Position numbers and translations under genes: made by a program
Part shown: one piece after another, positions 297 to 47,814 of the stretch
How positions within the stretch are numbered: position 1 is the first letter of the stretch
Layout: every line of letters starts with the position of its first letter
IMG/VR virus record: IMGVR_UViG_3300012943_000035
Coordinates: 1 to 61,732 of that record
Length of the DNA stretch: 61,732 nt
Strand: one strand, 5' to 3'
From: a virus
Lineage: Duplodnaviria; Caudoviricetes
The notes under the pieces: model-generated
The model's input: the letters and a program-made list of their open reading frames with translations, nothing else
The model's database searches: none
Told to the model about the DNA's origin: nothing

Positions 297-2498
297 TTAA
301 GCGGTTGACTGTGCGCGCTGAAGGGTGATGTCAGCGAGGATGAAGTCAATACCTTCAACAAGCTTCACTACAACGCTAACGTTGATGGTGTTGCCGTTGA
401 TCTGAACAACGAGCTGCTTGAAGCCGTTCTTAGCATCAGAGGTCGAAACCGTGATGCCTTGAGCGAGGTAGGTAGCCAAGATGCTTTCGCAGGTTGACTT
501 AACTTCGGTAGCAGAAACCGTGTTCTTAACGCCGACATAGATGTTCTCAAGCTGAGAACGGAAGTCGTAGGCAAGAACGTCGGCAGCGTACAAGACGTTA
601 CCGCGGTTATAGACCCAGTTTGCATCGCGACCGTAGGTGGTGTTATCCACAACCACACGGAAGCCACCAGACTGAGGAGCTTCCAAGAACGTGATTCCGT
701 TCTGGATGGCGTCATCGTACTGTAGATCAGGATCGAAGTCCACAACGATGTCAGCTTCAGCAGTGGACATTGGCTGTCCAGTCTGGCGAATGCCGGCCGC
801 GTTGAGGTACTTACCAGTCATTGGCAAGCCGATTGGGCTGCCGCCGCGAGCACCGGCAAGCAAGCAAGAACCAGCCCAAGGCTGGAACCACTTGATAGCG
901 CCGTCGCTATCGGTTTGACGGATGTCCTGGATAGAGAGCTGTACGCGAGCAGACGCAAGGTCTTGAGCCTTTTGCTTGCTGTCGTCGTACGAAGCTTTGT
1001 AAGAAAGGTAACCCTGACGCTCAGACTTACGCTTCGTGGTTGCCATCAAAGACAAGTGAGTCTTCACTGCCTGATGAATACCATCGATCGTGTAGTTAGA
1101 AGCTGGATCGGTCAAGCCGTCAGCAGCATCGTCAGAAGCATCGCGGCTCATAAGAGGAACCACGCTGTTAACGCGGAACTTCTCGAACTTGCTCAATGCT
1201 GAAGTGATGTCCGAGGTAGAGGTTGCGCCTTTAGCGCCGCCAGCCAAGAACGTTTCAGTAGCTGCATCTGGAAGACCTACGTACGCGCTAGCGCCAGCAA
1301 GTAACTCAGCAGCAGAAGCTTGAGCGAAGAAGTCACGAACTTCCTTTGCGTCCTTCTTGATTTGAGCAGGAAGAACAGTTGAAGATCCAAGAGCGCCGAG
1401 AGCGCTTACGCGATCAAGGACAGAAGGAGCTAGTTGACCGTAAAGGGTTGAGCCAAGGCTCATGGTCCAGTTACCGCCAGTTGAACTATTGATATAAGCA
1501 GCGAGCTCGCTCAAAGTTGCAAAATCAGCAAGAGTCAAGGTGTATTCTGGCGAAGCATTGTCCGTAAGAATCATTTGAGTTGCGTTAATCGTCACATTTG
1601 GAGCAGTACCGCCGTTACGTCCGATACGAACAACGATGTTTCCACCGACAGTTAGCGACTCATCTACGAGATCGCGCTTGTTCGAAAGGGTAATAACAGC
1701 CATATCTTCTGAAGCAGAAGATACAAGGCCTACAGTAAGACCTGCAGTCGTTGCAAGAGATCCGCTAACAATCTCAAAGTTACGGCCTGAGCCTTCACGA
1801 TGAGGATTAGAGGTTGCAAGACGAGCAAGAGTAACAACTGCTGCGGTATCAGAAGCACCGTTAACAACGAAGCTCATTCCTGCAGGAACAGAAGCTGAAG
1901 ACCAGTTTGCGCCGGTATTCAAAGCAGTCTGAAGCAATGCACGAGTAGTCGTTGCAGCTGGAGCTGTGAAAGTATCGCTCGGTCCACCGTTTACACGGAG
2001 AACAAGAGTTTGGGTTGCAACGTCTGCGCTTACGTCAAATGGAGCCGAAGATCCACGAGTAGCTGAAGTAGCTGGAACAAGAACGTTTTTATACGTTAGC
2101 TTGTTACCACCTTGACCCCATTCAAGAGCGCGCACAGAACCCCAAGTATTAGCAAGGGCGAGCAATGCACGAACTGAAGCGTTCGTCTTATAAATATAAA
2201 CGGCCTGTGCGCCGCCGGGAATGGCGCCGTCAGAGCCTGGAGCAAACAAGAAGTTACACGCGTCGACGAGAGCGCCGGCACGGTATTTCTGTTTGATCTG
2301 AGGAATTTGTTCTGGGCTAAACACGTTGTTAGCGATGTTTACTTCGCTTGCACCGGGTGCACCAGCGTCAGACTCTCCGAAGATTGCGATGATACCAGTT
2401 GGGCTAAGTGGAAAACCACCGCCGAGGTCGATCGAAACCTTAGAGTAAGCGCCTGGTTTGTAAATGGTTGCCCCATTAAAGCTTACATTGATTGCCAT
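297..2498 (-). CDS. Contractile tail sheath protein (733 aa)
   Basis: N-terminal 'FNGATIYKPGAYS' and C-terminal 'NVSVVVKLVEGIDFILADITL' match sheath architecture; size and position next to tube. Confidence 0.9.
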   Translation of the reverse strand: MAINVSFNGATIYKPGAYSKVSIDLGGGFPLSPTGIIAIFGESDAGAPGASEVNIANNVFSPEQIPQIKQKYRAGALVDACNFLFAPGSDGAIPGGAQAVYIYKTNASVRALLALANTWGSVRALEWGQGGNKLTYKNVLVPATSATRGSSAPFDVSADVATQTLVLRVNGGPSDTFTAPAATTTRALLQTALNTGANWSSASVPAGMSFVVNGASDTAAVVTLARLATSNPHREGSGRNFEIVSGSLATTAGLTVGLVSSASEDMAVITLSNKRDLVDESLTVGGNIVVRIGRNGGTAPNVTINATQMILTDNASPEYTLTLADFATLSELAAYINSSTGGNWTMSLGSTLYGQLAPSVLDRVSALGALGSSTVLPAQIKKDAKEVRDFFAQASAAELLAGASAYVGLPDAATETFLAGGAKGATSTSDITSALSKFEKFRVNSVVPLMSRDASDDAADGLTDPASNYTIDGIHQAVKTHLSLMATTKRKSERQGYLSYKASYDDSKQKAQDLASARVQLSIQDIRQTDSDGAIKWFQPWAGSCLLAGARGGSPIGLPMTGKYLNAAGIRQTGQPMSTAEADIVVDFDPDLQYDDAIQNGITFLEAPQSGGFRVVVDNTTYGRDANWVYNRGNVLYAADVLAYDFRSQLENIYVGVKNTVSATEVKSTCESILATYLAQGITVSTSDAKNGFKQLVVQINGNTINVSVVVKLVEGIDFILADITLQRAQSTA

Positions 2499-3610: not shown

Positions 3611-4248
3611 TAGAAGTTCTCCTCGTAGTCCCTGATAATGCCACGAATGACATCTTCTAACGAACTAGTTAGCTCCTTATTTATACTCTGAACTGTCTCT
3701 GTGAAGTCTTTGTCTTTAGCTGGTTGAACCCACTGAGTGTTAGCATTTTGCTTACTTGTGGCTGTTCTGAACTGGCCCTTAGAACTCTTAGGGGTTATTC
3801 TTTCTTTCTGGGCTCTTGAAGCTTCAACTCGCTCTGCTTGTGTCTGTTTCCAAGCATCATAGATATTGGTTGAAACCTTAGGACGATTCTTGGAAGGCTC
3901 GCCTACTGGAATAATCTTATAGACACCGCTTCCGTCTTTGATAGGCTTAGCACCTTGGAGTAAGCGTGGAAGCATTGGGAATGGAGGCTCTGAGAAATCT
4001 GTATTACCAGAGTCAGTAGTAAGCTGCTGTGAAATAGCGTTGATCCTGAGCTCGTTGATGAACTCTGCAGAACGCTTCTCTACACCAGTCTCGATAGCTA
4101 GCTGCATAGCCGCATTGGTCTGGTCTTCCATAGCTCTACCGATGTCGGCACTGGCTTTTTGGAGGATAGCTTGTACTGTGTTGGGGTCGATGCCCTTGTT
4201 CTCAAGAATGTACTTGAGGCGGTCGAGCTCGAAGAAGATGTTAGCCAT
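3610..4248 (-). CDS. Putative neck/tail-associated protein (212 aa)
   Basis: Translationally coupled ORF within the structural operon. Confidence 0.5.
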   Translation of the reverse strand: MANIFFELDRLKYILENKGIDPNTVQAILQKASADIGRAMEDQTNAAMQLAIETGVEKRSAEFINELRINAISQQLTTDSGNTDFSEPPFPMLPRLLQGAKPIKDGSGVYKIIPVGEPSKNRPKVSTNIYDAWKQTQAERVEASRAQKERITPKSSKGQFRTATSKQNANTQWVQPAKDKDFTETVQSINKELTSSLEDVIRGIIRDYEENF

Positions 4249-5767
4249 CAGACTTGCCCGCCTTGGTGATAACCCTGGCGCGCATGTCTTTTAAGAAGTT
4301 CTCTTTTTCCAAACTCTGCCAATCTTGGCCAAACGAGATGGTTATCTTCCCGTTAGGTGAAATTTCAATTCTTGGCTTGGTGAGGTAAGAGTAGTACGCG
4401 TCATGGACTTGGTCCTTGTTGGCAGGATTCGATGAGAATGCCTCTACTGTGCTTGGTTTCTTATCCATGGTATCAATCTTGCTCTGAAGCTCACGGAGCT
4501 TCAATTCTAGATCGTCCATGTCTTTGCCAACGGCTTGTGCAAGCTCGTTATGCTTATCTGAGAAATCGTGCACGCTTTCTTCGAGCTTGTCGAAGAGGGT
4601 CATGATACGACCTTCAACCTGCTGAAGATCTACAGCCATGCCATTACGCATCTGCTCACGGATCGTCTCCATCTCTGTGTAGATGTTACCGATGTTGTGG
4701 CGCTTGTAATTGTTTAAAAGTTCGTCGATGCCGCCAGAGATTGCGTCATCTGATAGCATGCCTTCGTCTAGAAGCTCAAGCTCTTTCTCGTCTTCTGGTA
4801 GGTACCATTCGAAGACAGACATAAGTGCAGCAGTGAGTTCAGGAAGTGATTTGTTGGTGAATTGATATACTGTCTTGTGGCCGTCGTTTACGCGACCAGA
4901 GTAGACATCTGACATGTGACGACGAATACTTACTGTATGCGTGTCGATCGTAAAGTCTTTAAAGTCTTCGTCCTGCATGTCTTTAACAGCATCGCGAATT
5001 CTGCGGAACATCCCGTTACCGATGAGCTTGAGAGCATCACCATGGGTTACTTCCATCACGGCATCCGCGCGTTGACGGATAATGTTCTTTTCCAGGGTTT
5101 CTAGAGCTACCATGCCCTGCAACGACTTCCCGAAACGGGCGCCGATGAACTCTTTCATTGGTTGAACGCAACAGTCACGCAACTTATCCCAAGGGATATC
5201 GTTGATCTCGTACCACCTGAGGTTCTTTAACTCCTCAGAGGCTTTAGGTTTACCTGTTGCTACTTCTGCTAGGTACACGGCAACTTCGTTACCGTTCTGG
5301 ACGCCGCGATAGATCTCCGTAGAGATGCGGCCTACTACTCCAGCTTCTTCCTTGAGCTCGCGTAATGCGCCGTCTTCAAACGACTCATTAGGCTCAAGAT
5401 GTCCACCGGGAAATGCGAGTCCACCCGAATGCTGACCGAGCAGAACGCGGTTCCACTGATCCATCACTAGGGTTGCAGCGGCTTTGCCCCTGCCTTTATA
5501 GAATTCTTCAAACGACTTCTTCAAGTCCTTCTTAGACTTCTTACGCTCTTTACGAGCTTCTTTAACTTTTTCTTTAGCTTTAGCATGATGAGCTTCGCCC
5601 CAGGTTCCGCCACGATCATTGTGCTTGGAATCCGGCGCATCTTTACCTGGATCGGTATACTTGGCTGCCACGGACTTAGGGGGACGACCACGCGGACCGT
5701 CCTTGGCTTGACCGTGGACGATCGCCATCATCATTCTGTACTGTTTTCTGGATACAGCTTGTGGCAT
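4241..5767 (-). CDS. Nudix-hydrolase-domain protein with coiled-coil C-terminus (508 aa)
   Basis: Nudix box GGHLEPNESFEDGALRELKEEAG (GX5EX7REUXEEXG). Confidence 0.8.
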   Translation of the reverse strand: MPQAVSRKQYRMMMAIVHGQAKDGPRGRPPKSVAAKYTDPGKDAPDSKHNDRGGTWGEAHHAKAKEKVKEARKERKKSKKDLKKSFEEFYKGRGKAAATLVMDQWNRVLLGQHSGGLAFPGGHLEPNESFEDGALRELKEEAGVVGRISTEIYRGVQNGNEVAVYLAEVATGKPKASEELKNLRWYEINDIPWDKLRDCCVQPMKEFIGARFGKSLQGMVALETLEKNIIRQRADAVMEVTHGDALKLIGNGMFRRIRDAVKDMQDEDFKDFTIDTHTVSIRRHMSDVYSGRVNDGHKTVYQFTNKSLPELTAALMSVFEWYLPEDEKELELLDEGMLSDDAISGGIDELLNNYKRHNIGNIYTEMETIREQMRNGMAVDLQQVEGRIMTLFDKLEESVHDFSDKHNELAQAVGKDMDDLELKLRELQSKIDTMDKKPSTVEAFSSNPANKDQVHDAYYSYLTKPRIEISPNGKITISFGQDWQSLEKENFLKDMRARVITKAGKSDG

Positions 5768-7531: not shown

Positions 7532-7708
7532 GTGAGCTCCAAGACGCATCTAGAATACATTAAGCAATTTAAGAGACAAGAGTCGCTCTTTAAACTCTTG
7601 TATCTACTTAGAGACTTAGGTATTAAATCGGCTAATAAGCACGCCCCACACGCTTGGGTAGCGTCTATGGACACTTTAACTCAACACATCGCGAGCAAGG
7701 CATGGTAG
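7532..7708 (+). CDS. KLGI-motif microprotein (58 aa, not in ORF track)
   Basis: GTG start; ...ESLFKLLYLLRDLGIKSANK... Confidence 0.65.
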   Translation: MSSKTHLEYIKQFKRQESLFKLLYLLRDLGIKSANKHAPHAWVASMDTLTQHIASKAW

Positions 7709-7989
7709 AACCCTTCTATACCCGACTTTCAATGGATCAGGTAATCGCGACCTATAAACTAGTTAATCTCCTCAGGAGATTGCGAGTTATAGGTACGATT
7801 GAACTTTCAACGGTTGGTTGCACGCCACCGGTTGAAACAATTGGCGATTATGATATCGTCGATATGACCATGAACATCTATGGGATTGAGAAGATTGGAT
7901 ATGATCCAAGCAAAGGGAAGACAGATGTTGAAGACTTATTGGAACAGCTATTCGGAAGAAAAAGTACGAGCCTCAGGGGCACTCCTTAA
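7702..7989 (+). CDS. Hypothetical protein (weak KLGI-type motif)
   Basis: Start overlaps previous stop; YKLVNLLRRLRVIG. Confidence 0.5.
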   Translation: MVEPFYTRLSMDQVIATYKLVNLLRRLRVIGTIELSTVGCTPPVETIGDYDIVDMTMNIYGIEKIGYDPSKGKTDVEDLLEQLFGRKSTSLRGTP

Positions 7990-8215
7990 CATCTTGAAGA
8001 AACTTGGTATCAAGAACTGCGATAAGGCCCTAAGACTCAATTCTCTGTACTCGATCATGTATCAGCAAAAGAAGATGATGCAGGATATCGAACAGCAACT
8101 ATATGGACACTTTAATCTCGGTTACGAGGGCCTGAACGCTCAATTAGGCGCTCAGAAGATTTCCGGTCTAAGCGAACAGCTTCAAAATCAAGACAAGCGC
8201 CCTTCTCGTAAGTAA
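7880..8215 (+). CDS. KLGI-motif protein
   Basis: ALLNILKKLGIKNC; exact start uncertain. Confidence 0.6.
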   Translation: MGLRRLDMIQAKGRQMLKTYWNSYSEEKVRASGALLNILKKLGIKNCDKALRLNSLYSIMYQQKKMMQDIEQQLYGHFNLGYEGLNAQLGAQKISGLSEQLQNQDKRPSRK

Positions 8216-8441
8216 AGCGTGTATCGTTCGGACATTCAGTCTGTCCACATACGCCTACCCAATCAGACATACTGCCGTGTTGGTTCATTGCCTTGGTGGT
8301 GATAGTTTCCAAGTTGATTGTGCAACCCTTCAACTCTCCTCGCTGAATTTCTAACGTGTCGTGAATGTTCACCATCTCAATCGAGTATGGCACAGAACTA
8401 CAACCGCTTAACAACAAGAACAATACTGCTAGCTTCTTCAT
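8112..8441 (-). CDS. Putative lipoprotein
   Basis: MKK + hydrophobic stretch + LSGC lipobox. Confidence 0.65.
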   Translation of the reverse strand: MKKLAVLFLLLSGCSSVPYSIEMVNIHDTLEIQRGELKGCTINLETITTKAMNQHGSMSDWVGVCGQTECPNDTRFTYEKGACLDFEAVRLDRKSSERLIERSGPRNRD

Positions 8442-8779
8442 TTCAAGTACTCCCTAAAGTCTTTTGCGAACCTAACTAGATTCTTTCTTGGCGGCATAGC
8501 ACCTTTACCGTTGGTCAAACGCTCAACTAGCAACTCCTGTGTAACTCCACGAAGCTTAGGTCCGATTGAACCAGGCAGATCAGGATTAGAGTTATGGCAA
8601 GATGTGCATTGAGACTGGTACATGATTCGTCCACGCTTCCACATCTTTGGATCTCTATCGGGTGGAGCAGTAGGTTCTTGGTATGGAGCATGGTTGGCTC
8701 CAACGTAGAACAATCCAGCAAGAACTATTACCGGCAATACCATTAAAGCAATTCGCTTAATCATCTTTCTTATGTCCAA
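8438..8779 (-). CDS. Membrane-anchored monoheme class I cytochrome c
   Basis: N-terminal TM/signal segment, GRIMY..CTSCH heme motif, GPKL and GAMPP (axial Met). Confidence 0.85.
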   Translation of the reverse strand: MDIRKMIKRIALMVLPVIVLAGLFYVGANHAPYQEPTAPPDRDPKMWKRGRIMYQSQCTSCHNSNPDLPGSIGPKLRGVTQELLVERLTNGKGAMPPRKNLVRFAKDFREYLK

Positions 8780-8957
8780 TCGCTTCTAAGTAAGTACTTA
8801 ATACTGAACCTGGCATCATCAAGATGTCTGGCTGTCCATAGTTGCGAAGCATCTTCAACATCGCTCTCTCCATGAAATGAACCTCAGCGCTCTTGATACC
8901 AAGCTTGAAGAGAAGATCTTTCAACGCGATCTTTGCGTCTCCCTTCTTGTCTACCAT
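8757..8957 (-). CDS. KLGI-motif microprotein
   Basis: ALKDLLFKLGIKSA; coupled to neighbouring genes. Confidence 0.65.
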   Translation of the reverse strand: MVDKKGDAKIALKDLLFKLGIKSAEVHFMERAMLKMLRNYGQPDILMMPGSVLSTYLEAIGHKKDD

Positions 8958-9436
8958 GGAATTTCCACTTGCAACGTGATGAAGTCTCTTCCCTTGTTAG
9001 GAAGTTCGAGTCCCGCGCTGCTGATATGCTTGTAAACGAAGCCGATCATGTTCCGACGGTTGTCCCGAAGTCCGATCAGGAAGTCTTGTGTGAACTGGAA
9101 GTTGCCACCGAGCATGGAATCTGGCGATGTGATGAGACCGACGCCCCAAAGGGAGCGAACCACTAGATATCCTGGGTTTACTTCCACTCCGACAGAGTAG
9201 AAACCAAAGCCAGAACTAAGACGGTCATGTCCGCTTGAGTCAGCGAAGAGTCCAAGCTCATATTGATGGATGAAAGGTCCGAACCAATCTTCCTCATATC
9301 CTAGAGAGAAGATCTTTGTCGCAGCGGCTCCGTATTCAGCGCTGCTTAGAATACCTACGCCATACTTACCGAACGAGCCAGCGTTGGCTGTGGTGGAAGC
9401 AATGAGGGCAAGGATACTGACGAAGAGTTTCTTCAT
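8951..9436 (-). CDS. PagL-like outer-membrane lipid A deacylase (acyloxyacyl hydrolase family)
   Basis: Signal peptide, alternating beta-strand pattern, C-terminal aromatic residue, 'YKHISSAGLELPNKG' resembling the PagL HxSNAG..PNxG motif. Confidence 0.7.
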   Translation of the reverse strand: MKKLFVSILALIASTTANAGSFGKYGVGILSSAEYGAAATKIFSLGYEEDWFGPFIHQYELGLFADSSGHDRLSSGFGFYSVGVEVNPGYLVVRSLWGVGLITSPDSMLGGNFQFTQDFLIGLRDNRRNMIGFVYKHISSAGLELPNKGRDFITLQVEIPW

Positions 9437-9448
9437 CAATATGTTATA

Positions 9449-9613
9449 CTATCCAATCTTACGCCAGCTGTCGTTCATGTAGACGTAGGTTCCAGGGATT
9501 CCCTTGTAGACCATGTGGGCTATGTATCCAGCAGGAAAGCTGGGTTGTGGTTTGTTTAGAAGTGTGTAGAGAAACACTATGAGTTGAGCCTTCTTACTTG
9601 CGTCAAGATCCAT
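9449..9613 (-). CDS. Hypothetical microprotein (54 aa, not in ORF track)
   Basis: MDLDASKKAQLIVFLYTLLNK...TYVYMNDSWRKIG; overlaps upstream stop. Confidence 0.5.
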   Translation of the reverse strand: MDLDASKKAQLIVFLYTLLNKPQPSFPAGYIAHMVYKGIPGTYVYMNDSWRKIG

Positions 9614-9797
9614 GCGTCAACCTGTACCTAATGCGTTCACCGTGAATCCTGTGAACATACTCAGTTACTTGTGGCTCTGTCAACAATCTAGCCTTAGCGA
9701 TATCAAGCTTACACAGAAGGATCAAGAGGCACCAAACTGGGTACATACTCTTATTCACTTCTAGCACGACTATCAAATCACTCTTCGTATCGCTCAT
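9603..9797 (-). CDS. KLGI-like motif microprotein
   Basis: CLLILLCKLDIAKA. Confidence 0.55.
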   Translation of the reverse strand: MSDTKSDLIVVLEVNKSMYPVWCLLILLCKLDIAKARLLTEPQVTEYVHRIHGERIRYRLTHGS

Positions 9798-10024
9798 CTA
9801 CGCATCCCATCAGGATTACGCTTGCTTAAGACATAGAGAGACTTATCTGTGTGGATCCAGTATGAGCAGTCGCACTCGCCGCCAGCTCGGTTGATCATGC
9901 CAACCCTATCACCGACGAAGCCAGCCAGCTTGGTGACATTTTCACCTGTGCCGCCGCCGAACGGATCGTGGGTTGTGGTGAACCTACCTTTGGCCTTGTT
10001 AATCTTGAGTGCGGCGATGATCAT
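9794..10024 (-). CDS. Hypothetical protein (paralog of next ORF)
   Basis: HDPFGGG...DGMRR; ATGA coupling. Confidence 0.55.
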   Translation of the reverse strand: MIIAALKINKAKGRFTTTHDPFGGGTGENVTKLAGFVGDRVGMINRAGGECDCSYWIHTDKSLYVLSKRNPDGMRR

Positions 10025-10245
10025 CTTCTCATGCCCTCTGTACTGTGAGGGCCTTTGACGAAGCGATCGTATTGATAGCTGATGCTCTTACTTTTATCCA
10101 GTAAGCCTACGCAGGAATGCAGTTTGTCATCGCGCAAGGTTGCCTTAGAGACCATGAACTGATACCCAACTATGTGTCCATAGCTGTTACCAAACTTGTT
10201 TCCCCACGGGTCGTGAGCCTTGCGGCAGCGTCTACTGATGGTCAT
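10021..10245 (-). CDS. Hypothetical protein
   Basis: HDPWGNK...EGMRR; ATGA coupling. Confidence 0.55.
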   Translation of the reverse strand: MTISRRCRKAHDPWGNKFGNSYGHIVGYQFMVSKATLRDDKLHSCVGLLDKSKSISYQYDRFVKGPHSTEGMRR

Positions 10246-10484
10246 CTATTTATTATACCTTTGGCGGGCCTTCTCATAAGCATGGTCCCAGTCGAGAGCC
10301 ATTGTCCTGACGGCGCCGGTATCTTCATCGACAAACTCAACTGCATCGAAGACTCTAAGCAACATGAGAAGAAGCACGAGCCTTTGAAAAGCCTCTGTGC
10401 GCTCCTTGCGCTTGTCTTTGAAATCTACTACGCAGCGAACCTTTTTCATATGCTAGAAGGCCCCTCCCCGCCTGAGTCGGGAAT

Positions 10485-10787
10485 TTATTTCACTATGTGT
10501 TCACTTACAATTATCTGACCAGAACCTCCACCGCCTCCACCTCCGCCAATCATTTTTACTGATAGCGTCAACGGTACATAAGCGTGCTTGCGGGCAGAGC
10601 GAATACCTAGATCTGCGAGAAGCTTGCAAAGCTTCTGAACCTCGATCGCGGGCAGAATAGTGTAGTGAGCGTTATGTGCGTAGACCAACGGCTTCCCGCC
10701 GAGGCATATCTTCACGGTCCCACCAGATACTACGCGGCCGGCTCCACCGGCTCCGCCAGATTTACTATAACCTTTATGATTCGTCAC
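10485..10787 (-). CDS. KLGI-motif protein with glycine-rich segments
   Basis: KLCKLLADLGIRSARK between GGAGGAG and IGGGGGGGGSGQIIVSE. Confidence 0.65.
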   Translation of the reverse strand: MTNHKGYSKSGGAGGAGRVVSGGTVKICLGGKPLVYAHNAHYTILPAIEVQKLCKLLADLGIRSARKHAYVPLTLSVKMIGGGGGGGGSGQIIVSEHIVK

Positions 10788-10956
10788 TGACGTTCCTCAC
10801 GGTCGTGTAGTAGCGTGGCACGGGCATTATTGCTCCGGCAAACGACATGTGCAACCTGTAATCTCTTGCAGACTTTATCCCTAGCTTATATAGTAGCTGG
10901 AGCAAAGGCCATACATGTGGATCCCACTTGTTCATACGACCCCAACAGGCAAACAC
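10774..10956 (-). CDS. KLGI-motif microprotein
   Basis: PLLQLLYKLGIKSARD. Confidence 0.65.
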   Translation of the reverse strand: MFACWGRMNKWDPHVWPLLQLLYKLGIKSARDYRLHMSFAGAIMPVPRYYTTVRNVSDES

Positions 10957-11150
10957 TTCTTGGCCGAGCGAATACCAAGCTTCGCGAGCAAGTAACAGAG
11001 TTTCTGTGCCTCAGTGGCCTTCGGCCCAAACTCTAGCAACGCTCGTATCCTGGTTGCTAGCTGTTGATCGCTCTCCCCCGGCAAGCGGGAGAGGCCATAC
11101 AAACCGGCAAAGTTCTCGATCACGGTTTTATTGATGTAATTGAAAGACAT
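10932..11150 (-). CDS. KLGI-motif microprotein with baseplate-like segment
   Basis: GLSRLPGESDQQLATRI + KLCYLLAKLGIRSAKK. Confidence 0.65.
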   Translation of the reverse strand: MSFNYINKTVIENFAGLYGLSRLPGESDQQLATRIRALLEFGPKATEAQKLCYLLAKLGIRSAKKCLPVGVV

Positions 11151-11159
11151 GGAGAGATT

Positions 11160-11405
11160 TTACTTGCGCGGACGCGGGGAGCCGAGGATGGTGGTTGGTG
11201 ACATGAATATGAGAGGTCGGCGGATTGGCCCATCGCCTAGTGGTTGGCCTTTGTACATGAGGCGACCAGGGTAGGTGTACCCACAAACCCCTGCCACACT
11301 AATAGCCACGCTGGTGAGGGGCTTGATCGTGCTCTTGATGCCGAGAAGCCGCAAGAGATGGAGTAGCTTCTCCGCTTGAAGGTGAGGGTGCTTGCCTAGT
11401 TTCAT
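11160..11405 (-). CDS. KLGI-motif microprotein
   Basis: KLLHLLRLLGIKST; GGAGG RBS. Confidence 0.65.
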   Translation of the reverse strand: MKLGKHPHLQAEKLLHLLRLLGIKSTIKPLTSVAISVAGVCGYTYPGRLMYKGQPLGDGPIRRPLIFMSPTTILGSPRPRK

Positions 11406-11587
11406 AGTTCGGCCTCCGACACAAATACATAGTCGTAAGAGTAGTGCCTGGCCTTTGTGATGCCGAGCTTAGCTAATAGCAGGAGCAAGGGCTTGCGTTT
11501 TGGGTTTGTGTACCAATGAGCTTTTGGGTCCCCGTAATAGCCAGGAAGCTTGATATTAGCTCCGTTGAACTTGATGTTAATTGCCAT
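11402..11587 (-). CDS. KLGI-motif microprotein with sheath-like N-terminus
   Basis: MAINIKFNGANIKLPGYY + PLLLLLAKLGITKA. Confidence 0.7.
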   Translation of the reverse strand: MAINIKFNGANIKLPGYYGDPKAHWYTNPKRKPLLLLLAKLGITKARHYSYDYVFVSEAEL

Positions 11588-11813
11588 AGTAGTTGAAGTG
11601 GCAGCGTATGCCGAGTTTGTGTAGCAATACTAGTAGTGAGCGATAGTGAAGACTATGTGAACCCGCGATTGGGTTCTTGACGTGAGGGAGGTAGACCGCG
11701 GTGGCCGCGATATGTTTGATGAGGCGATCGGTGGCACCATGATAGATGGCTACGTCGTAGATGTAGTTAGCAAGGTGCTGGTTGTATTGCTCGGCGCGAG
11801 AAGGTGTATCCAT
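11577..11813 (-). CDS. KLGI-motif microprotein
   Basis: Start at TAATG overlap; SLLVLLHKLGIRCH. Confidence 0.6.
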   Translation of the reverse strand: MDTPSRAEQYNQHLANYIYDVAIYHGATDRLIKHIAATAVYLPHVKNPIAGSHSLHYRSLLVLLHKLGIRCHFNYYGN

Positions 11814-11956
11814 TAGTATAGCACACAGATGCCAAGCTTGTAAAGCAAGGTGCAGAACGCGAGCCACTGTGGGGTTGCTTGCATTGCGATGGCGTAATCG
11901 GACCCTTTGTAATTAGGATCTGAGGTTGAGTATGTGTAGGCACGAGCGTAGCGCAT
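11813..11956 (-). CDS. KLGI-motif microprotein (47 aa, not in ORF track)
   Basis: MRYARAY...WLAFCTLLYKLGICVLY. Confidence 0.6.
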   Translation of the reverse strand: MRYARAYTYSTSDPNYKGSDYAIAMQATPQWLAFCTLLYKLGICVLY

Positions 11957-12983
11957 AAATTTTATATTTAAATTATACGAGGGTACCGGTACCCATGTGA
12001 ACCTATTAAACGGCGGAGTAGGGATATGAGTGCCACCTTGGCGGGGTGGTGAATGCCGTATGGTGTGATTATGTAATGTGAGAATGGAACCTTTTGCATT
12101 TTATATTTATACCGGTGTTGGGTACAGGGTACCTGAGTGAACCTATTAGAAAAGCTCATGTGCGCGGTAGGCGCGCAGCGAGTACTGGTCCCGACTCAAG
12201 GGATCCCTTGTAAGCCAAGGCCAGCGGGTGGCTAAAATGACACAGCACCTGCTAGACCTGAGACTAGGAGAACGTATGTGGACAAGACGAGTCGGTTATG
12301 CCTACTATATCGCCAGTGTTCTGAACAGACCTATCACCTACAGGCGAGCATGTGCGATCGCCAAGTCCTTCAGCGAGGACGATCTGCGCCGAATCTACAT
12401 GAGGGTGAAAGCGAGGAACGTATGAAGAGGATTGCTGATCAGGTATTGATCTTGGAAGCGATCGGTCAGGTTAGGACTGAGCTGAGAGAGGACATGTCGT
12501 TCAAGGACATGATGGATGTGATGACTAGGTTGGCAACTCTCTACTCACTCCTGAACGTACACCAACTAAGAGATATCGCGGTTGACGCGGACATGAGAGA
12601 TATTAACGAAAGGAAGGTAGCATGAGCAAGAAATTAATGCAGGCGTTCGAGGATCATACTGAGTGGATGGACATGAGAGAGCATGCGATCGACTTCATCG
12701 ACACCTACACCAACGATGAGATCGCTCAGATGGTCCGCGAGAAGATCCTCACCATCGAAGAGGTTGAGGCAGGTCTCCGCAGAAAGCAGGGTCTATGAGG
12801 ACTTGGTTTGACTACACGATCGAAGCTGGACTTATACTCCTCGCCATCTACGCTGTGGTAGAAGCAGGACGAATCATCGGATCAATCTCCAACATCCCGC
12901 TATTACAGTAGGGAACAGCTGTCCTTAGGGGCAGAGCACGGGACAGGTGGCGCAAGCTGCCTGTCCCTATGCCCGTTCCCTAG

Positions 12984-12999
12984 CTGACACTGCTACGCC
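12984..12999 (+). repeat. Invariant 16-mer CTGACACTGCTACGCC, copy 1
   Basis: Exact match to four other intergenic copies. Confidence 0.9.
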
Positions 13000-13137
13000 A
13001 GGCCTCCCGACTCTATATCTAGTTGTAAGCGATAACAAGATCGGTAACGAAACAAATAACTGATCTTGAAATCCTGACCCTAAACAAGATCATAAGCGAA
13101 ATACACCTCGCTAATGATCACAAACAAAGGAGCAATC

Positions 13138-15375: not shown

Positions 15376-15606
15376 ATGAGCGGAAACCATAAGCGTAAGG
15401 ATAGGAATAGGTGGGTTGAGCGACGTGCTCACAGTGCCTTATGCTTGCTTCATCTGTTGGGAGATTTAGGTATTAAGAGCGCTGATGGGGTTGAATCTAA
15501 GTGGAATCCTGACTTCATAGAGGTCTATACAACTCGACATACTAGAGATATGGCCGAACGATTGCATCGCTTATGGAGCTCGGAGCAGAGACTGCCCAGA
15601 TCCTGA
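15376..15606 (+). CDS. KLGI-motif microprotein
   Basis: CLLHLLGDLGIKSA. Confidence 0.65.
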   Translation: MSGNHKRKDRNRWVERRAHSALCLLHLLGDLGIKSADGVESKWNPDFIEVYTTRHTRDMAERLHRLWSSEQRLPRS

Positions 15607-19016: not shown

Positions 19017-19163
19017 ATGGATGAGGAATTAGAGTACGACATAATCAACCGATACGCCATAAAGACTGAGCGATTGATCGATCGCCTGAAACCAGGCATT
19101 AGAGGTTATGCCTCTGTCTTCAACCTAATTACTCTCTTACAGAAACTAGGGATCAAGATATGA
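19017..19163 (+). CDS. KLGI-motif microprotein (48 aa, not in ORF track)
   Basis: ...SVFNLITLLQKLGIKI; TATAAT 7 nt upstream of ATG. Confidence 0.6.
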   Translation: MDEELEYDIINRYAIKTERLIDRLKPGIRGYASVFNLITLLQKLGIKI

Positions 19164-21854: not shown

Positions 21855-22043
21855 ATGTTCATACCACACGAGAAAAAGAAATCACTCACCGCTCTCCTGA
21901 ATGTGTTATCCAAGCTCGGCATAAACTGCCGGTTCGAGAACCTCACTATATCTATATTTACTAGAGGTTATGAGATAACACTAAAAGGATCTGAGCGAGA
22001 TAAGAATATCTCGGATCACAGAAAGAAAGAATTTAAGTTTTAA
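21855..22043 (+). CDS. KLGI-motif microprotein
   Basis: ALLNVLSKLGINCR. Confidence 0.55.
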   Translation: MFIPHEKKKSLTALLNVLSKLGINCRFENLTISIFTRGYEITLKGSERDKNISDHRKKEFKF

Positions 22044-24906: not shown

Positions 24907-25047
24907 ATGAGAATAGAGAAAGCTCAGTCTTGCGCCAACCTCATCAGATTGCTTTATAAGCTCGGCATCATTGATCACAACGAAGCTTCGAAATTCATAG
25001 ACCATCTACAAATTATGGTCATGCAATCCGAATCTAATTCTCAATAG
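24907..25047 (+). CDS. KLGI-motif microprotein (46 aa, not in ORF track)
   Basis: QSCANLIRLLYKLGIID; TATAAC 6 nt before ATG. Confidence 0.6.
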   Translation: MRIEKAQSCANLIRLLYKLGIIDHNEASKFIDHLQIMVMQSESNSQ

Positions 25048-28776: not shown

Positions 28777-29271
28777 ATGAATGTCGAAGTCTATTGTGAT
28801 GGGTCAGCAACCATTGCCACACTTCCTGGAGGTTGGGCGTTCGTCATACTGGTTGACGGCGTTAAGTACACGGAAGGATCTGGGCACATTGCTAAAGCTA
28901 CTAATAATATTGCGGAACTTACAGCTGCAATCAGTGGACTCGAGTTTGTCCAAAACGATCCAGGGCTCGCACATAGCACATCTATTACACTTGTATCGGA
29001 TTCACAACTCACACTTCGGTATGCAAGTGGAGAGTATCAATGCCGAAAATATCACCTTGTCCCTCTCTTCTGTAAACTCCGTCAACTTCACGACAAGCTT
29101 AAGATTAAAACAAGATGGGTAAAGGGTCACTCAGGAGAACCAACTAATGAGCGATGCGACGAACTTGCTAAGGCTGCTCGCGGAGGGACAACCGTTACCG
29201 CACAGAGTTCAAGCCTGTCGGTCTCTACGGTTCCTTATGAGGACACTCTCGAAGCTGGGGATCACGAGTAG
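28777..29271 (+). CDS. rnhA: Ribonuclease HI
   Basis: YCDGS, TNNIAEL, SDSQ, WVKGHSG..NERCDELA. Confidence 0.93.
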   Translation: MNVEVYCDGSATIATLPGGWAFVILVDGVKYTEGSGHIAKATNNIAELTAAISGLEFVQNDPGLAHSTSITLVSDSQLTLRYASGEYQCRKYHLVPLFCKLRQLHDKLKIKTRWVKGHSGEPTNERCDELAKAARGGTTVTAQSSSLSVSTVPYEDTLEAGDHE

Positions 29272-29876: not shown

Positions 29877-31655
29877 TTACAACGAGCAGAGACCAGAAGC
29901 ACAATCATCTACTTGCTCTGCGTCAGTCTTATGTTGCTCGTTGAAGCGAGTTTTAGCTTCATTAATTGGGATAGGTGATAGAGGTGGGGGTTCTATGGTT
30001 CCATCATCCCTAACCATGCCGCGAGTGCCATCTCTGTAGAACGTGGTTCCTTTTAGGTGAGGTAGGTACTCAAGCCAAAGCTTCTCAACTTCAGCCATAG
30101 GATAGTCGTGGGCGATGTTGATAGTCTTTGAGACAGCATTGTCTACGTGCTTCTGGACGATACGTTGAACTTCCATATGGTCACGAACAGATAGATCGTG
30201 GCTGCCAACAAAGTGACCGACATCTTTACCGTCCTTCATGAATTGCTCAAATAGAGGATGAAAGACTAGTTCGGTCTTGCGCTCTTCGCCTTGCCAGAAG
30301 CGACGCTCATAAGCAGGAGCAAACATAGGTTCAATTCCTGAGCTGCAGTTGCCGCTTAGGATAGAGACAGTTCCAGTTGGTGCCTGAGTGAGGATACAGC
30401 AATTACGGATACCGTGCTCTTGAACAAGGGATTTGATCTTAGCCGGCATACGCTTCATGAAGCCTGATTCAACGTGCTTCTCTGGGTCACATAGAGGGAA
30501 TGCTCCCTTCTCAACGGCTAACATGACAGAGGCTTCGTATGCAGCCTTAGATATGAAGCGATACAGTTTGTCTGTGAACTTATTACCATCTTCTGAGCCG
30601 TAACGAAGTCCAAGAATAGCTAGAGTATCAGCTAATGCAGTCGTACCTAAGCCGATACGGCGAAGATTCTGAGATTTAGCTTTCATTTCAGGAAGTGGAT
30701 AGGAATTGACAGTGAGGACGTTATCTAGGAATCTGACTGCCGTGCGGATCGTATTACCAAGTAGAGCCCAATCAATCTCACTACCAGAAATGAAGCGAGT
30801 GAGAACAAGATGCCCAAGGCAGCAGCAATCGTAAGCAGAGAGAGCAATTTCACCACACGGATTAGTAGTAACAAGCGGTTCAATGTAGTGGATGTTGCTT
30901 TCACTTTCGACAAGCTCCCAGTTCAAGAACCCAGGCTCTGCTGAGTTGTATGCGTTAGCTACAATGGTATCCCAAAGAGCTTTAGCCTTGACTACTCGCT
31001 TGTGTTTACCCTTCCAGTTGAGCTCCCAATCGCCATCGTTCTTGACAGCCTTGATGAACTCCTTCGTGTGCTTGGAACGAACAGAGACGTTTGCGTGAGT
31101 GAGCTCACCTTTAGTAAGCTTAGCGTTCAAGAACTCCTCGATATCTGGATGATCAAGATCTAAACTGAACATGAGTGCGACGCGACGCTGTCCACCATTA
31201 CGAACTGGATCAGCACAGTTGTCGATGAGACGCATGAGCTCAACGGCTCCTGGCGCAACACCTTTCTGGCCAGCAATAGGGGCATTACGAGGACGGACGT
31301 CAGAGAAGTCGTCGCCGCAGCCGCCACCAGTCATTGAGGTAACGATCATGTTGTATGAAGACTTACCCCACCCCTCTTTGGAATCCTTGTTAGGATCGAG
31401 GACGAAGCAATTGAGTAGTTGAGGATTAGTACGTCCAGAGTTATACCAAATGCGACCACCTGGAACGAACATATTAGCGGATAGAATAGCGGAAAATTTC
31501 TCTCTGTATAGCTGCTGCTTCTCGGGCATTTCAGCGATAGCCATCTGATTGGCTACGCGAGCGCAAGCTTCTTCCCAAGTCTCAGTCTCTGTGAAAGCAT
31601 ATCTGTCTCTGAAGATTGTCTGGGAAAAACCGGTTGGAACAAACTTTTCAGTCAC
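29877..31655 (-). CDS. nrdJ: Class II (adenosylcobalamin-dependent) ribonucleotide reductase
   Basis: PGGRI, NCF, TNPCGEI, APTGT, C-terminal CxxGxC; GTG start after GGAG; no beta subunit nearby. Confidence 0.85.
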   Translation of the reverse strand: MTEKFVPTGFSQTIFRDRYAFTETETWEEACARVANQMAIAEMPEKQQLYREKFSAILSANMFVPGGRIWYNSGRTNPQLLNCFVLDPNKDSKEGWGKSSYNMIVTSMTGGGCGDDFSDVRPRNAPIAGQKGVAPGAVELMRLIDNCADPVRNGGQRRVALMFSLDLDHPDIEEFLNAKLTKGELTHANVSVRSKHTKEFIKAVKNDGDWELNWKGKHKRVVKAKALWDTIVANAYNSAEPGFLNWELVESESNIHYIEPLVTTNPCGEIALSAYDCCCLGHLVLTRFISGSEIDWALLGNTIRTAVRFLDNVLTVNSYPLPEMKAKSQNLRRIGLGTTALADTLAILGLRYGSEDGNKFTDKLYRFISKAAYEASVMLAVEKGAFPLCDPEKHVESGFMKRMPAKIKSLVQEHGIRNCCILTQAPTGTVSILSGNCSSGIEPMFAPAYERRFWQGEERKTELVFHPLFEQFMKDGKDVGHFVGSHDLSVRDHMEVQRIVQKHVDNAVSKTINIAHDYPMAEVEKLWLEYLPHLKGTTFYRDGTRGMVRDDGTIEPPPLSPIPINEAKTRFNEQHKTDAEQVDDCASGLCSL

Positions 31656-39875: not shown

Positions 39876-39954
39876 CGCAGGGATCGAGCAACGGCGGCTC
39901 ACATGGCTCATAACCATGACGGTGTACTAGATTCGACTTCTAGCCCTGCAACCA
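39876..39954 (+). tRNA. tRNA-Met(CAT), initiator type
   Basis: C1:A72 mismatch, anticodon arm CATGG-CTCATAA-CCATG, T arm CTAGA-TTCGACT-TCTAG, encoded CCA. Confidence 0.9.
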
Positions 39955-39958
39955 ACTT

Positions 39959-40093
39959 ATGGCTGAAACAAGAAAACTTCTATATCTTCTTGCTCTACTA
40001 GAGATCAGATCAGCCTACATCGAATACAATAAGAACAGAGGAATGGGTTGCAATATGTGTGGCTATTCCCAATGGGGTTGCGACTACTGCTAA
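39959..40093 (+). CDS. KLGI-like motif microprotein with CxxC pairs (44 aa, not in ORF track)
   Basis: KLLYLLALLEIRSA...CNMC...CDYC. Confidence 0.55.
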   Translation: MAETRKLLYLLALLEIRSAYIEYNKNRGMGCNMCGYSQWGCDYC

Positions 40094-40242
40094 TGGTCCA
40101 GTATCATCATACAACCGAAGCTTTGCTTAAACTCCTGGTCCTCTTAGGTATCAAGAGCGCAGCAGAACACATAGATGATCTCGACTTCGAAATTCGTGCT
40201 CAACTAATGCCTGACCCTTCATGTGCTTGCGGTTGTTGTTAG
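40093..40242 (+). CDS. KLGI-motif microprotein (49 aa)
   Basis: TAATG coupling; ALLKLLVLLGIKSA. Confidence 0.65.
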   Translation: MVQYHHTTEALLKLLVLLGIKSAAEHIDDLDFEIRAQLMPDPSCACGCC

Positions 40243-46392: not shown

Positions 46393-46437
46393 GTAGGTAG
46401 GCAGAGAGCTTACTGAAAACAAAAGGAGTCTCTAATG
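46393..46437 (+). promoter_or_regulatory. Structured 5' leader, copy 2 (candidate riboswitch/pseudoknot)
   Basis: GTAGGTAGGC-AGAGA-GCTTACTG-AAAACAAAAG-GAG-TCTCT-A-ATG. Confidence 0.65.
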
Positions 46438-47814
46438 AGAGATAATCTGTTACTAGATACCGATAGCTATAAACTTTCCCACTGGGTCCAGTACCCACCT
46501 AACACCACGAGCATGTACTCGTATCTAGAGAGTCGTGGAGGCAAATATGGAAACACCGTTATGTTCGGCCTGCAACCAATCCTTAAAAGATTGGAGCAAG
46601 GCTTCACTCTTCTTGATGTTGAAGAAGCTAGGGATTTCGCCAAGCTACATGGAGAGCCTTTCAATTATGAGGGATGGGTGGCCTGTTTTCATGCGCACGG
46701 AGGAAAGTTTCCAGTCAGAATTAAGGCTGTGGCGGAAGGTACTGTTGTGCCGGTGTCAAACGTCCTTATGTCGGTCGAGTCAACTGACCCTAAATTTTTC
46801 TGGGTTGTCTCATATCTTGAGACGGTCTTGATGCGTATGTGGTATCCGATCACGGTTGCTACCCAGAGTTGGACTATCAAGCAGATCATTCGCGGATTCC
46901 TTGAACGTACCGCTGAAGACCCAGATGCAGAGATCGGCTTCAAGCTGCACGATTTCGGGTCACGCGGTGTCAGTAGTTACGAGAGTGCTTGCATCGGTGG
47001 AGCTGCCCACTTGACCCAGTTCATGGGTTCGGACACGATGGCAGGTATCCGCTTCGCCAACTATCATTATAAGAGTGAGATGGCTGGCTTCTCTATCCCA
47101 GCTGCTGAGCACAGCACGATCACTATGTGGGGCAAAGAACGTGAAGAAGATGCCTATAGGAACATGGTTGAACAGTATGGAAAGCAAGGTAAGCTCTTCG
47201 CGGTCGTTTCTGACTCCTACGACCTCTACAATGCCTGCTCAAACATCTGGGGCAAGAAGCTTAAGGATCAGGTCTTGGGCTGTGGTGGAACTCTGATTGT
47301 TCGCCCAGACTCCGGCGATCCTACGACCGTCGTGCTTAAGACTCTCCAAGCGCTTGACGCTTCGTTTGGGTCTAGCTACAATAAGAAAGGGTTCAAGGTG
47401 CTAAATGGCGTCAGAGTCATCCAAGGAGACGGAATTAACGAGGACTCAATCAGAAGCATTCTTGAGACTGCTATTGCTGCTGGATTCTCTGCAAGTAATA
47501 TCGCTTTCGGAATGGGTGGAGCACTCCTTCAGCAGGTTAACAGAGACACGCAGAAGTTCGCTTTCAAATGTAGTGAAGCAACTGTTGACGGGCACTCAGT
47601 TGAGGTCTTCAAAGATCCGGTTACAGATTCAGGTAAGCGTTCTAAGAAAGGAAAGCTGGACCTTGTCATGCGCCTTGAAAAGGGTAAGCCTACAATTAGC
47701 ACTGTTAAAGGAGAGAGCTTCGGTTCTCTACTCCGTCCTGTCTTCGAGAACGGTAAGATCTTACGAGAATACACCTTGGAAGAAGTTCGTAGGAACTGTC
47801 AGGAGACTACGTGA
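46435..47814 (+). CDS. nadV: Nicotinamide phosphoribosyltransferase
   Basis: TDSYKLSH, LHDFGSRG, PAAEHS, VSDSYD, RPDSGDP, IQGDG, FGMGGALLQ. Confidence 0.95.
   Translation: MRDNLLLDTDSYKLSHWVQYPPNTTSMYSYLESRGGKYGNTVMFGLQPILKRLEQGFTLLDVEEARDFAKLHGEPFNYEGWVACFHAHGGKFPVRIKAVAEGTVVPVSNVLMSVESTDPKFFWVVSYLETVLMRMWYPITVATQSWTIKQIIRGFLERTAEDPDAEIGFKLHDFGSRGVSSYESACIGGAAHLTQFMGSDTMAGIRFANYHYKSEMAGFSIPAAEHSTITMWGKEREEDAYRNMVEQYGKQGKLFAVVSDSYDLYNACSNIWGKKLKDQVLGCGGTLIVRPDSGDPTTVVLKTLQALDASFGSSYNKKGFKVLNGVRVIQGDGINEDSIRSILETAIAAGFSASNIAFGMGGALLQQVNRDTQKFAFKCSEATVDGHSVEVFKDPVTDSGKRSKKGKLDLVMRLEKGKPTISTVKGESFGSLLRPVFENGKILREYTLEEVRRNCQETT

Follow-up and report, generated by a model that had tools for sequence, protein, structure and literature searches.

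A tagged phage microprotein copies the N-terminal arm of its own tail sheath and belongs to an undescribed family

The window (the whole stretch of DNA that we analyzed, 61,732 nucleotides) is a 61.7-kb viral contig, with its assembly present in full, and it comes from an uncultured myovirus. Its tail sheath gene and an array of small ORFs are on the same strand, and the array, which includes the microprotein gene that we discuss here, is upstream of the structural module:

297..2498, minus strand: 733-aa tail sheath gene, from which the arm is copied (phrog_279; profile match to 5li2; Foldseek match to the phage 812 sheath)
2445..2498, minus strand: N-terminal arm of the sheath, residues 1-18, near-invariant in 33 related loci
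9449..11956, minus strand: leftward array of ~13 tightly packed small ORFs, most of which bear the tag or a variant form (motif table and ORF lists)
11402..11587, minus strand: microprotein ORF, 61 aa, with a copy of the sheath arm, a YGDP turn, and a tag helix (ORF list)
11531..11587, minus strand: arm of the microprotein (codons 1-19), a copy of the sheath N-terminus in residues 1-18 followed by the family-specific G19 (alignment and position table)
11459..11488, minus strand: tag helix LLLLLAKLGI, residues 34-43 of the microprotein (motif scans and information by codon position)

The sheath ORF (297-2498, minus strand) matches phrog_279 (E = 5.5e-31), and a profile built from 26 sheaths matches the sheath of phage 812 in the PDB (5li2, E = 2.3e-6). 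An AlphaFold model of the sheath has a pLDDT of 67.5 overall (residues 1-34 are below 50 in this monomer model), and Foldseek aligns it to the sheath chains of phage 812 with E = 2.7e-19. Phage 812 has the closest solved sheath; the closest sheath from an isolate is that of Myxococcus phage Mx1, at 32.7% identity. Searching with the sheath also identified 33 related viral loci, whose sheaths are 54-87% identical overall and whose N-terminal arms are near-invariant. Across 26 aligned sheaths, M1, A2, I3, F7, G9, P15, G16, Y18, and S19 do not vary, and the C-terminal arm is likewise highly conserved.

The sequence-only reading took it as established that sheath N-termini form the handshake between subunits. 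This is stated for phage 812 in a structural report (PMC13433997): sheath subunits of the disc closer to the head add their N- and C-termini to the two-stranded sheet of domain I, and those of the first disc add theirs to the handshake domain of the initiator in the same way.

The same reading had claimed that the 61-aa ORF shares 12 of 18 residues with the start of the sheath, and this holds: with both proteins numbered from Met1, 12 of the first 18 residues are identical, position for position (BLASTP: 29.6 bits, E = 4e-6). The proposed comparison to shuffled sequences agrees. The Smith-Waterman score is 62, versus a mean of 28.0 for shuffled sequences (standard deviation 3.9, maximum 56), and 0 of 3000 shuffles reach 62. 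In the six-frame translation of the window, the next best 18-residue segment after the sheath itself has 7 of 18 identities. The likeness of the microprotein to the sheath stops at residue 18. The microprotein has neither the full domains I-IV nor the conserved C-terminal core of a tail sheath. It is also not a handshake initiator of the gp25/TssE type, which is a folded, two-stranded domain that accepts strands; the microprotein has the donor strand.

At the DNA level, the arms of the microprotein and the sheath agree at 33 of 54 nucleotides, and their codons differ at 8 of the 11 identical non-Met residues. When microproteins from four other phages are compared to their own sheaths, 31-34 of 54 nucleotides are identical. 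When 8 distinct arms are compared in 28 pairs, 190 of the 307 codons for identical residues differ (10 positions were preset by the search pattern in this comparison). Because different codons encode 8 of the 11 identical non-Met residues, we read the likeness as preserved at the protein level; it is neither a chance match nor a fresh duplicate of DNA. By these comparisons, the peptide has been kept as synonymous sites diverged. A cause at the RNA level is excluded by the 57-63% nucleotide identity and the scattered synonymous changes, and a recent DNA duplication is excluded by the agreement of only 33 of 54 bases.

A weaker second copy of the arm had been proposed after the tag of another ORF in the array:

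10774..10956, minus strand: tagged ORF; the tag is real and the arm copy is unsupported (18-mer scan and arm HMM)

This copy proved to be at chance level. Its best ungapped match to the sheath arm has 6 of 18 identities, which equals 19 other segments among those listed. An HMM of the arm gives it 5.9 bits (E = 26 across 37,429 six-frame segments), with 11 unrelated segments scoring higher.

The tag that follows the arm was described correctly: it is in frame, at residues 34-43, and it recurs in small ORFs of the window. The motif L-L-x-L-L-x-K-L-G-I(-K-S-A) is found in 17 ORFs of 46-111 aa on both strands, of which two are doubtful, as they overlap the RNase H and NAMPT genes in a different frame. 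The tagged ORFs are:

7532-7708, 7880-8215, 15376-15606, 19017-19163, 21855-22043, 24907-25047, and 40048-40242, plus strand: tagged small ORFs (motif scan)
8757-8957 and the array at 9449-11956, minus strand: tagged small ORFs (motif scan)

At least 15 of these small ORFs (46-111 aa) have only the helix motif in common; its position varies, and it often lies a few residues before the stop codon. The motif is also present in the related contigs G001-G003 and in loci L084, L173, and L174. Codon positions 1 and 2 of the motif carry as much as 2.0 bits of information, and position 3 carries 0.03-0.55 bits. Because third codon positions carry almost no information, we consider the tag to be conserved as protein. 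The three-base periodicity of this conservation rules out a DNA-level motif, whether promoter or binding site. When a profile of 42 tag segments was compared to the PDB, its best match had E = 3 and was to the HTH region in a regulator of the Rgg type. Against Pfam, a single tag segment had a match, below threshold, to Hera_DD. We found no convincing match of the tagged ORFs in Pfam or PHROGs.

The ORFs of the array are tightly packed. The start codon of the microprotein gene overlaps the stop codon of the upstream ORF, and its own stop codon overlaps the start of the next ORF (ATGA). At the head of the array, we identified the following elements:

11972..12001, minus strand: predicted sigma-70-like promoter (TTCACA, 18 nt, TATAAT; 11/12 matches to the consensus; consensus scan)
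11988-12008, minus strand: 21-nt element, the copy near the array head, overlapping the predicted promoter (repeat scan)
12128..12148, minus strand: second copy of the 21-nt element, 140 nt upstream of the first (repeat scan)

The 21-nt element has exactly 2 matches in the window, versus 0.11 expected, and after each of them come a TATAAT/TATAAA-type box and ATATAAAAT. The two elements probably make up a tandem early promoter, and the ORF at 11968-12159 is likely spurious, a mere translation of the promoter element. Related contigs have the same element, again translated within a spurious ORF at the head of the array. Because sigma-70-like promoters head the array, we infer that it is transcribed early by the host's polymerase. 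Equivalent arrays of tagged ORFs of 40-110 aa are found in related contigs, and the content of the arrays differs greatly between close relatives.

Standard searches did not link the microprotein to any described protein. It has no match in Pfam, PHROG, or NCBIfam; a word-indexed search of 5.8 billion proteins returned only itself; and tblastn against a collection of phage isolates gave just two matches, both with E = 2, to an Arthrobacter phage lysin. Positions 9000-13000 of the window have no DNA match in that collection. In the ESM Atlas, the microprotein had no usable match, and the tagged ORF at 8757-8957 had only leads below 0.9.

Searches with the arm itself, in contrast to these, recovered a family. 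We back-translated arm patterns, which fix ten positions, to DNA. Scanning with these patterns gave five viral stretches, of which four were microprotein loci and the fifth was a long sheath-like ORF, and in metagenomes, 10 of 10 stretches were ORFs of 42-68 aa of the arm-microprotein kind. In a looser scan, among the matches listed (at least 118), there were 114 long ORFs of the sheath type, 2 microproteins, and 2 unrelated short ORFs. Because the patterns fix ten positions, we also built a profile from nine members and compared it to 1.84 billion protein representatives (E ≤ 1e-3). Of the 25 matches, 23 are proteins of 42-105 aa with the arm at the start, and 18 of these 23 were absent from the query. 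In one of them (P0017), the arm begins at an internal methionine, after an N-terminal extension. The remaining two matches are an unrelated repeat protein and a protein of 2,499 aa. We did not find the family in cultured phages from the isolate collection.

We tabulated the residues at each position in 25 sequences, bearing in mind that most members were recovered via their arm. The majority residue is the sheath residue at 16 of positions 1-18. P15, G16, and G19 are invariant, and M1, I3, F7, and Y18 are each present in 23-24 of 25. There are also two consistent departures from the sheaths: position 17 is bulky (Tyr, Ile, or Phe) instead of Ala, and position 19 is Gly in 25 of 25 microproteins instead of Ser. 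A proline follows G19, either as P20 (11 of 25) or as P21 (16 of 25). A broad regular expression finds the helix in 19 of 25 sequences, and we recognized variants by eye in the other six. Throughout the 23 representatives, the copy runs from Met1 to residue 18. A sequence resembling a Shine-Dalgarno site lies upstream of 5 of 9 members.

The ORF from the window has every feature of the family: its residues 1-18 fit the arm pattern M-A-I-x-[VIM]-x-F-x-G-x-x-[ILV]-x-x-P-G-x-Y from Met1, it continues with G19-D20-P21, and at 61 aa it includes the tag helix. It lacks the Shine-Dalgarno-like sequence. Taken at the level of sequence, the arm microproteins are a conserved family with an arm (residues 1-18), a G19-proline turn, and an LLxLLxKLGI-like helix. 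The family appears to be undescribed: keyword searches of the open-access literature found no paper on a mimic of the sheath arm.

Among the relatives of the window phage, the gene is patchy. A six-frame scan of the related loci found one further non-sheath copy of the arm, at L002:2953-3120. This is a 55-aa ORF with the arm and a tag-like helix, and a tagged array begins with it. It shares 11 of 18 residues with its own sheath (E = 5e-5) and 11 of 19 with the microprotein from the window (E = 2e-6), with nothing alignable past the arm. The closest relative, G001, has a sheath that is 87% identical and a complete array, yet it has no canonical copy of the arm. It has just a 118-aa ORF with an internal stretch that is weakly similar to residues 7-24 (E = 0.004). 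G003 (146 kb) has a GTG-started ORF with a diverged arm (7 bits, which is insignificant alone). The diverged-arm ORFs of G001 and G003 are likely orthologs of the window's microprotein. Besides G002, these are the relatives with whole arrays that we examined, and both have only diverged versions.

Tagged ORFs are present in 8 of the 12 loci that extend at least 9.4 kb upstream of the sheath, and the canonical copy is present in L002 only, although the flanks may cut some arrays short. Because the arms of G001 and G003 have diverged, and because L002 has the sole canonical copy among the 12 loci, we conclude from these comparisons that the arm-microprotein gene is accessory and patchy. The sequence-only reading had named the loss of the sheath-like residues in relatives as a sign of a neutral gene fragment. 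For the most part, this loss is not seen: the 23 representatives keep the arm, while the arms of G001 and G003 have diverged.

Two further observations concern the related loci. The microproteins of L174 and L183 have flanking genes in common. In L173, a tagged 45-aa ORF (11310-11447, plus strand) has an end, after its tag, that resembles arm residues 9-18 (12.3 bits, E = 0.24); it may be a decayed second copy of the arm.

Other small ORFs of the arrays contain pieces of virion proteins. We compared 2,799 small ORFs to 235 large ORFs from the window, three whole related contigs, and five loci, and followed up with pairwise checks. The ORFs that we discuss are:

Window 10485-10787 (minus strand), L055:5344-5610, L182:2515-2847, and L173:10769-11011: small array ORFs that bear pieces of the post-sheath protein, the head protein, or a fiber-like repeat
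10485..10787, minus strand: tagged neighbor ORF, 100 aa, whose residues 19-42 resemble the N-terminus of the post-sheath protein of relatives (pairwise comparison and phmmer)

The 111-aa array ORF of L182 and residues 46-77 of the major head protein (phrog_752) are identical at 18 of 32 positions (E = 7e-10), and the tagged 81-aa ORF of L173 matches a repeat of an 882-aa fiber-like protein (E = 5e-7). By our calculation, these two matches survive multiple testing at 2,799 queries. After its tag, the arm-bearing ORF of G003 matches residues 7-33 of a conserved 187-aa protein encoded after the sheath (E = 2e-5), and ORF 10485-10787 of the window matches residues 8-31 of the post-sheath protein (10 of 24, E = 3e-4; phmmer E = 0.005). 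We find these two matches credible mainly because they independently strike the same segment. The ORF at 8757-8957 of the window has a weak match to the head protein (E = 0.012). A resemblance between the glycine-rich C-terminus of ORF 10485-10787 and a 204-aa glycine-rich protein of G001 vanishes with composition correction.

Position alone makes the post-sheath protein (187-197 aa) a candidate for the tail tube. It has no match in Pfam or NCBIfam, weak ones in PHROG, and none in the PDB or the phage collection, and its AlphaFold model has a pLDDT of 38.

The arrays could be a library of early, tagged mimics, each of which joins the shared helix to a short copy of one of the phage's own polymerizing virion proteins. 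We doubt this generalization. If it were true, it would be a general viral strategy, which might pre-empt sensors of structural proteins or dominantly block the assembly of rival related phages or tail-like particles.

What might the arm do? We suppose that ORF 11402-11587 is a real, translated, accessory gene, in which G19, the proline, and an aromatic residue would form a turn after the arm. The amphipathic LLxLLxKLGI-type helix would then be a module that this clade of phages appends to many small ORFs; being common to the array, it might provide a second function, such as oligomerization or binding to a common partner. Because the peptide keeps the invariant residues of the sheath arm, it may act as a surrogate donor strand at the sites where the next sheath subunit would ordinarily place its N-terminus. 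By capping such a site, the microprotein could interfere with the polymerization of the sheath or time it. The target might be the tails of its own clade, those of a co-infecting relative, or those of a resident relative.

Tentatively, we favor this accessory donor-strand mimic, with an interfering or timing role and not that of an essential chaperone, since the gene is probably an early one and is accessory. Patchiness is not expected of an essential assembly factor; whatever part the microprotein plays in assembling its own phage, the phage could do without it. We also count in its favor that a second tagged ORF and the arm-bearing ORF of G003 resemble the post-sheath protein. Besides the patchiness, other points stand against it. 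Early expression would precede the synthesis of the sheath. Position 17 is not Ala and S19 is always replaced by Gly, which makes the arm an inexact surrogate. And the sheath's N-terminal arm binds jointly with the C-terminal arm and with contacts between domains, so a lone arm may be a weak binder.

Another reading is that the microprotein is an immune decoy: early display of the most conserved peptide of the sheath would occupy a host sensor without activating it, and the other fragment-bearing ORFs would do the same for the head, fiber, and post-sheath proteins. Sensing of phage structural proteins by bacterial immune proteins has been reported (10.1101/2022.05.30.493996 and 10.1101/2022.08.27.505566). 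The array is probably early; the gene is accessory, patchy, and fast-evolving, as arms-race genes typically are; and array ORFs do carry pieces of the head protein (E = 7e-10, and weakly 0.012), the fiber-like protein (5e-7), and the post-sheath protein (2e-5 and 3e-4). However, a fragment could equally trigger a sensor, the sequence offers no pointer to a defense partner, and keyword search of the open-access literature found no sensor of the sheath N-terminus. We consider a decoy unlikely.

The array might instead be a nursery that captures bits of the phage's own genome beside the shared helix, with the arm kept for folding or some other role and not for its likeness to the sheath. Fragments of several different virion genes in array ORFs, the very different content of arrays in close relatives, and the diverged arms of G001 and G003 would all be expected if the arm were such a by-product of recombination. 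But random capture does not explain why the majority residue matches the sheath at 16 of 18 positions after synonymous divergence, nor why the copy always runs from Met1 to residue 18 in the 23 representatives. An origin as a by-product with no selection for sheath likeness seems improbable to us.

A still less likely reading, which we rate as very doubtful, is that the arm is an address label that docks the microprotein on the finished tail, for instance at vacant acceptor sites nearest the head, as a minor decoration of the virion. In phage 812, discs accept termini from the disc nearer the head (PMC13433997), which would leave the acceptor sheets of the last disc unfilled. The gene is on the strand of the structural module and upstream of it; but it lies outside the tail module, in a probably early array, and it is patchily distributed. 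Finally, the ORF is short, has no match in Pfam, PHROG, or NCBIfam, and lacks a Shine-Dalgarno-like sequence, yet the chance that it is non-coding or that the resemblance is accidental is negligible, given E = 4e-6, 0 of 3000 shuffles, and the family of 23 small proteins; the metagenome and profile searches that found this family refute that idea.

Several known systems are comparable. The partners of the sheath handshake, which are domain I and the gp25/TssE-like initiator, concern the same interface as the arm (PMC13433997). Those partners are folded virion domains that accept strands, whereas the microprotein is an ORF of 42-105 aa across the family that does not look structural, offers only a donor strand, and is encoded outside the tail module. 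In chaperone-usher pili (PapD/FimC type), a strand of the chaperone fills the groove of a subunit until the N-terminal strand of the neighboring subunit replaces it. The concept of a surrogate beta-strand in a polymerization groove is the same, but the proteins are unrelated and act in another compartment, and the chaperone's strand is not a copy of the subunit's extension, while the microprotein's arm is.

Eukaryotic microProteins are small dominant-negative proteins that consist of one interaction module of a larger protein, and they regulate transcription factors. The phage microprotein is likewise a small protein with a copied interaction module from a larger oligomerizing protein, although the eukaryotic ones act on transcription factors and keyword search of the open-access literature found no case from phage tails. 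The internal proteins of phage T4 share a short N-terminal capsid targeting sequence, which directs them to the head scaffold and is cleaved off. This is also a short N-terminal peptide that is common to otherwise unrelated proteins of one phage, but T4's peptide is cleaved and directed to the head, while the peptide shared here is the polymerization arm of the sheath. To our knowledge, the known anti-defense mimics copy DNA or sequester signals, and none copies the terminal strand of a virion protein. If the decoy reading holds, the microprotein would be comparable to them, and to the bacterial sensors of phage structural proteins, as a small early phage protein aimed at host immunity that senses a virion protein.

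If the arm does bind the site of the sheath N-terminus, the microprotein would apparently be the first natural peptide inhibitor or regulator of the polymerization of a contractile sheath. It would then be a means of acting on phage tails, tailocins, and related injection systems, and bacterial viruses would have their own version of the dominant-negative microproteins. A decoy would instead point to a host sensor of the sheath N-terminus. With at least 23 family clusters and the shared helix, we would have a first testable hypothesis for an unannotated class of putatively early phage genes.

Several other features of these phages are worth recording. Between the array and the structural genes, the window encodes a PagL-like lipid A 3-O-deacylase with a start like that of a signal peptide (8951-9439, minus strand; PF09411, E = 2.1e-9), which suggests a Gram-negative host. 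Also encoded there are a small c-type cytochrome (8438-8779, minus strand; Cytochrome_CBB3, E = 1.1e-8, with CxxCH present) and an adjoining lipoprotein-like ORF (8112-8441, minus strand) whose signal sequence ends in Cys; together, these two are an unusual cargo for this location. Within the structural block is a 508-aa NUDIX-domain protein (4241-5767, minus strand; E = 1.6e-15) that is kept among relatives. The phage also carries a nicotinamide phosphoribosyltransferase (46435-47814, plus strand; phrog_448, E = 2e-151), an RNase H (28777-29271, plus strand), and a tRNA-Met (39876-39954, plus strand). In G002 (ORFs at 92105, 557 aa, and 95094, 482 aa) and G003 (ORFs at 31432 and 34316), the major head protein shares a segment with the product of the gene immediately upstream: its residues 23-54 show 66% identity to residues ~475-510 of that product. 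This common segment may be a signal for targeting or cleavage.
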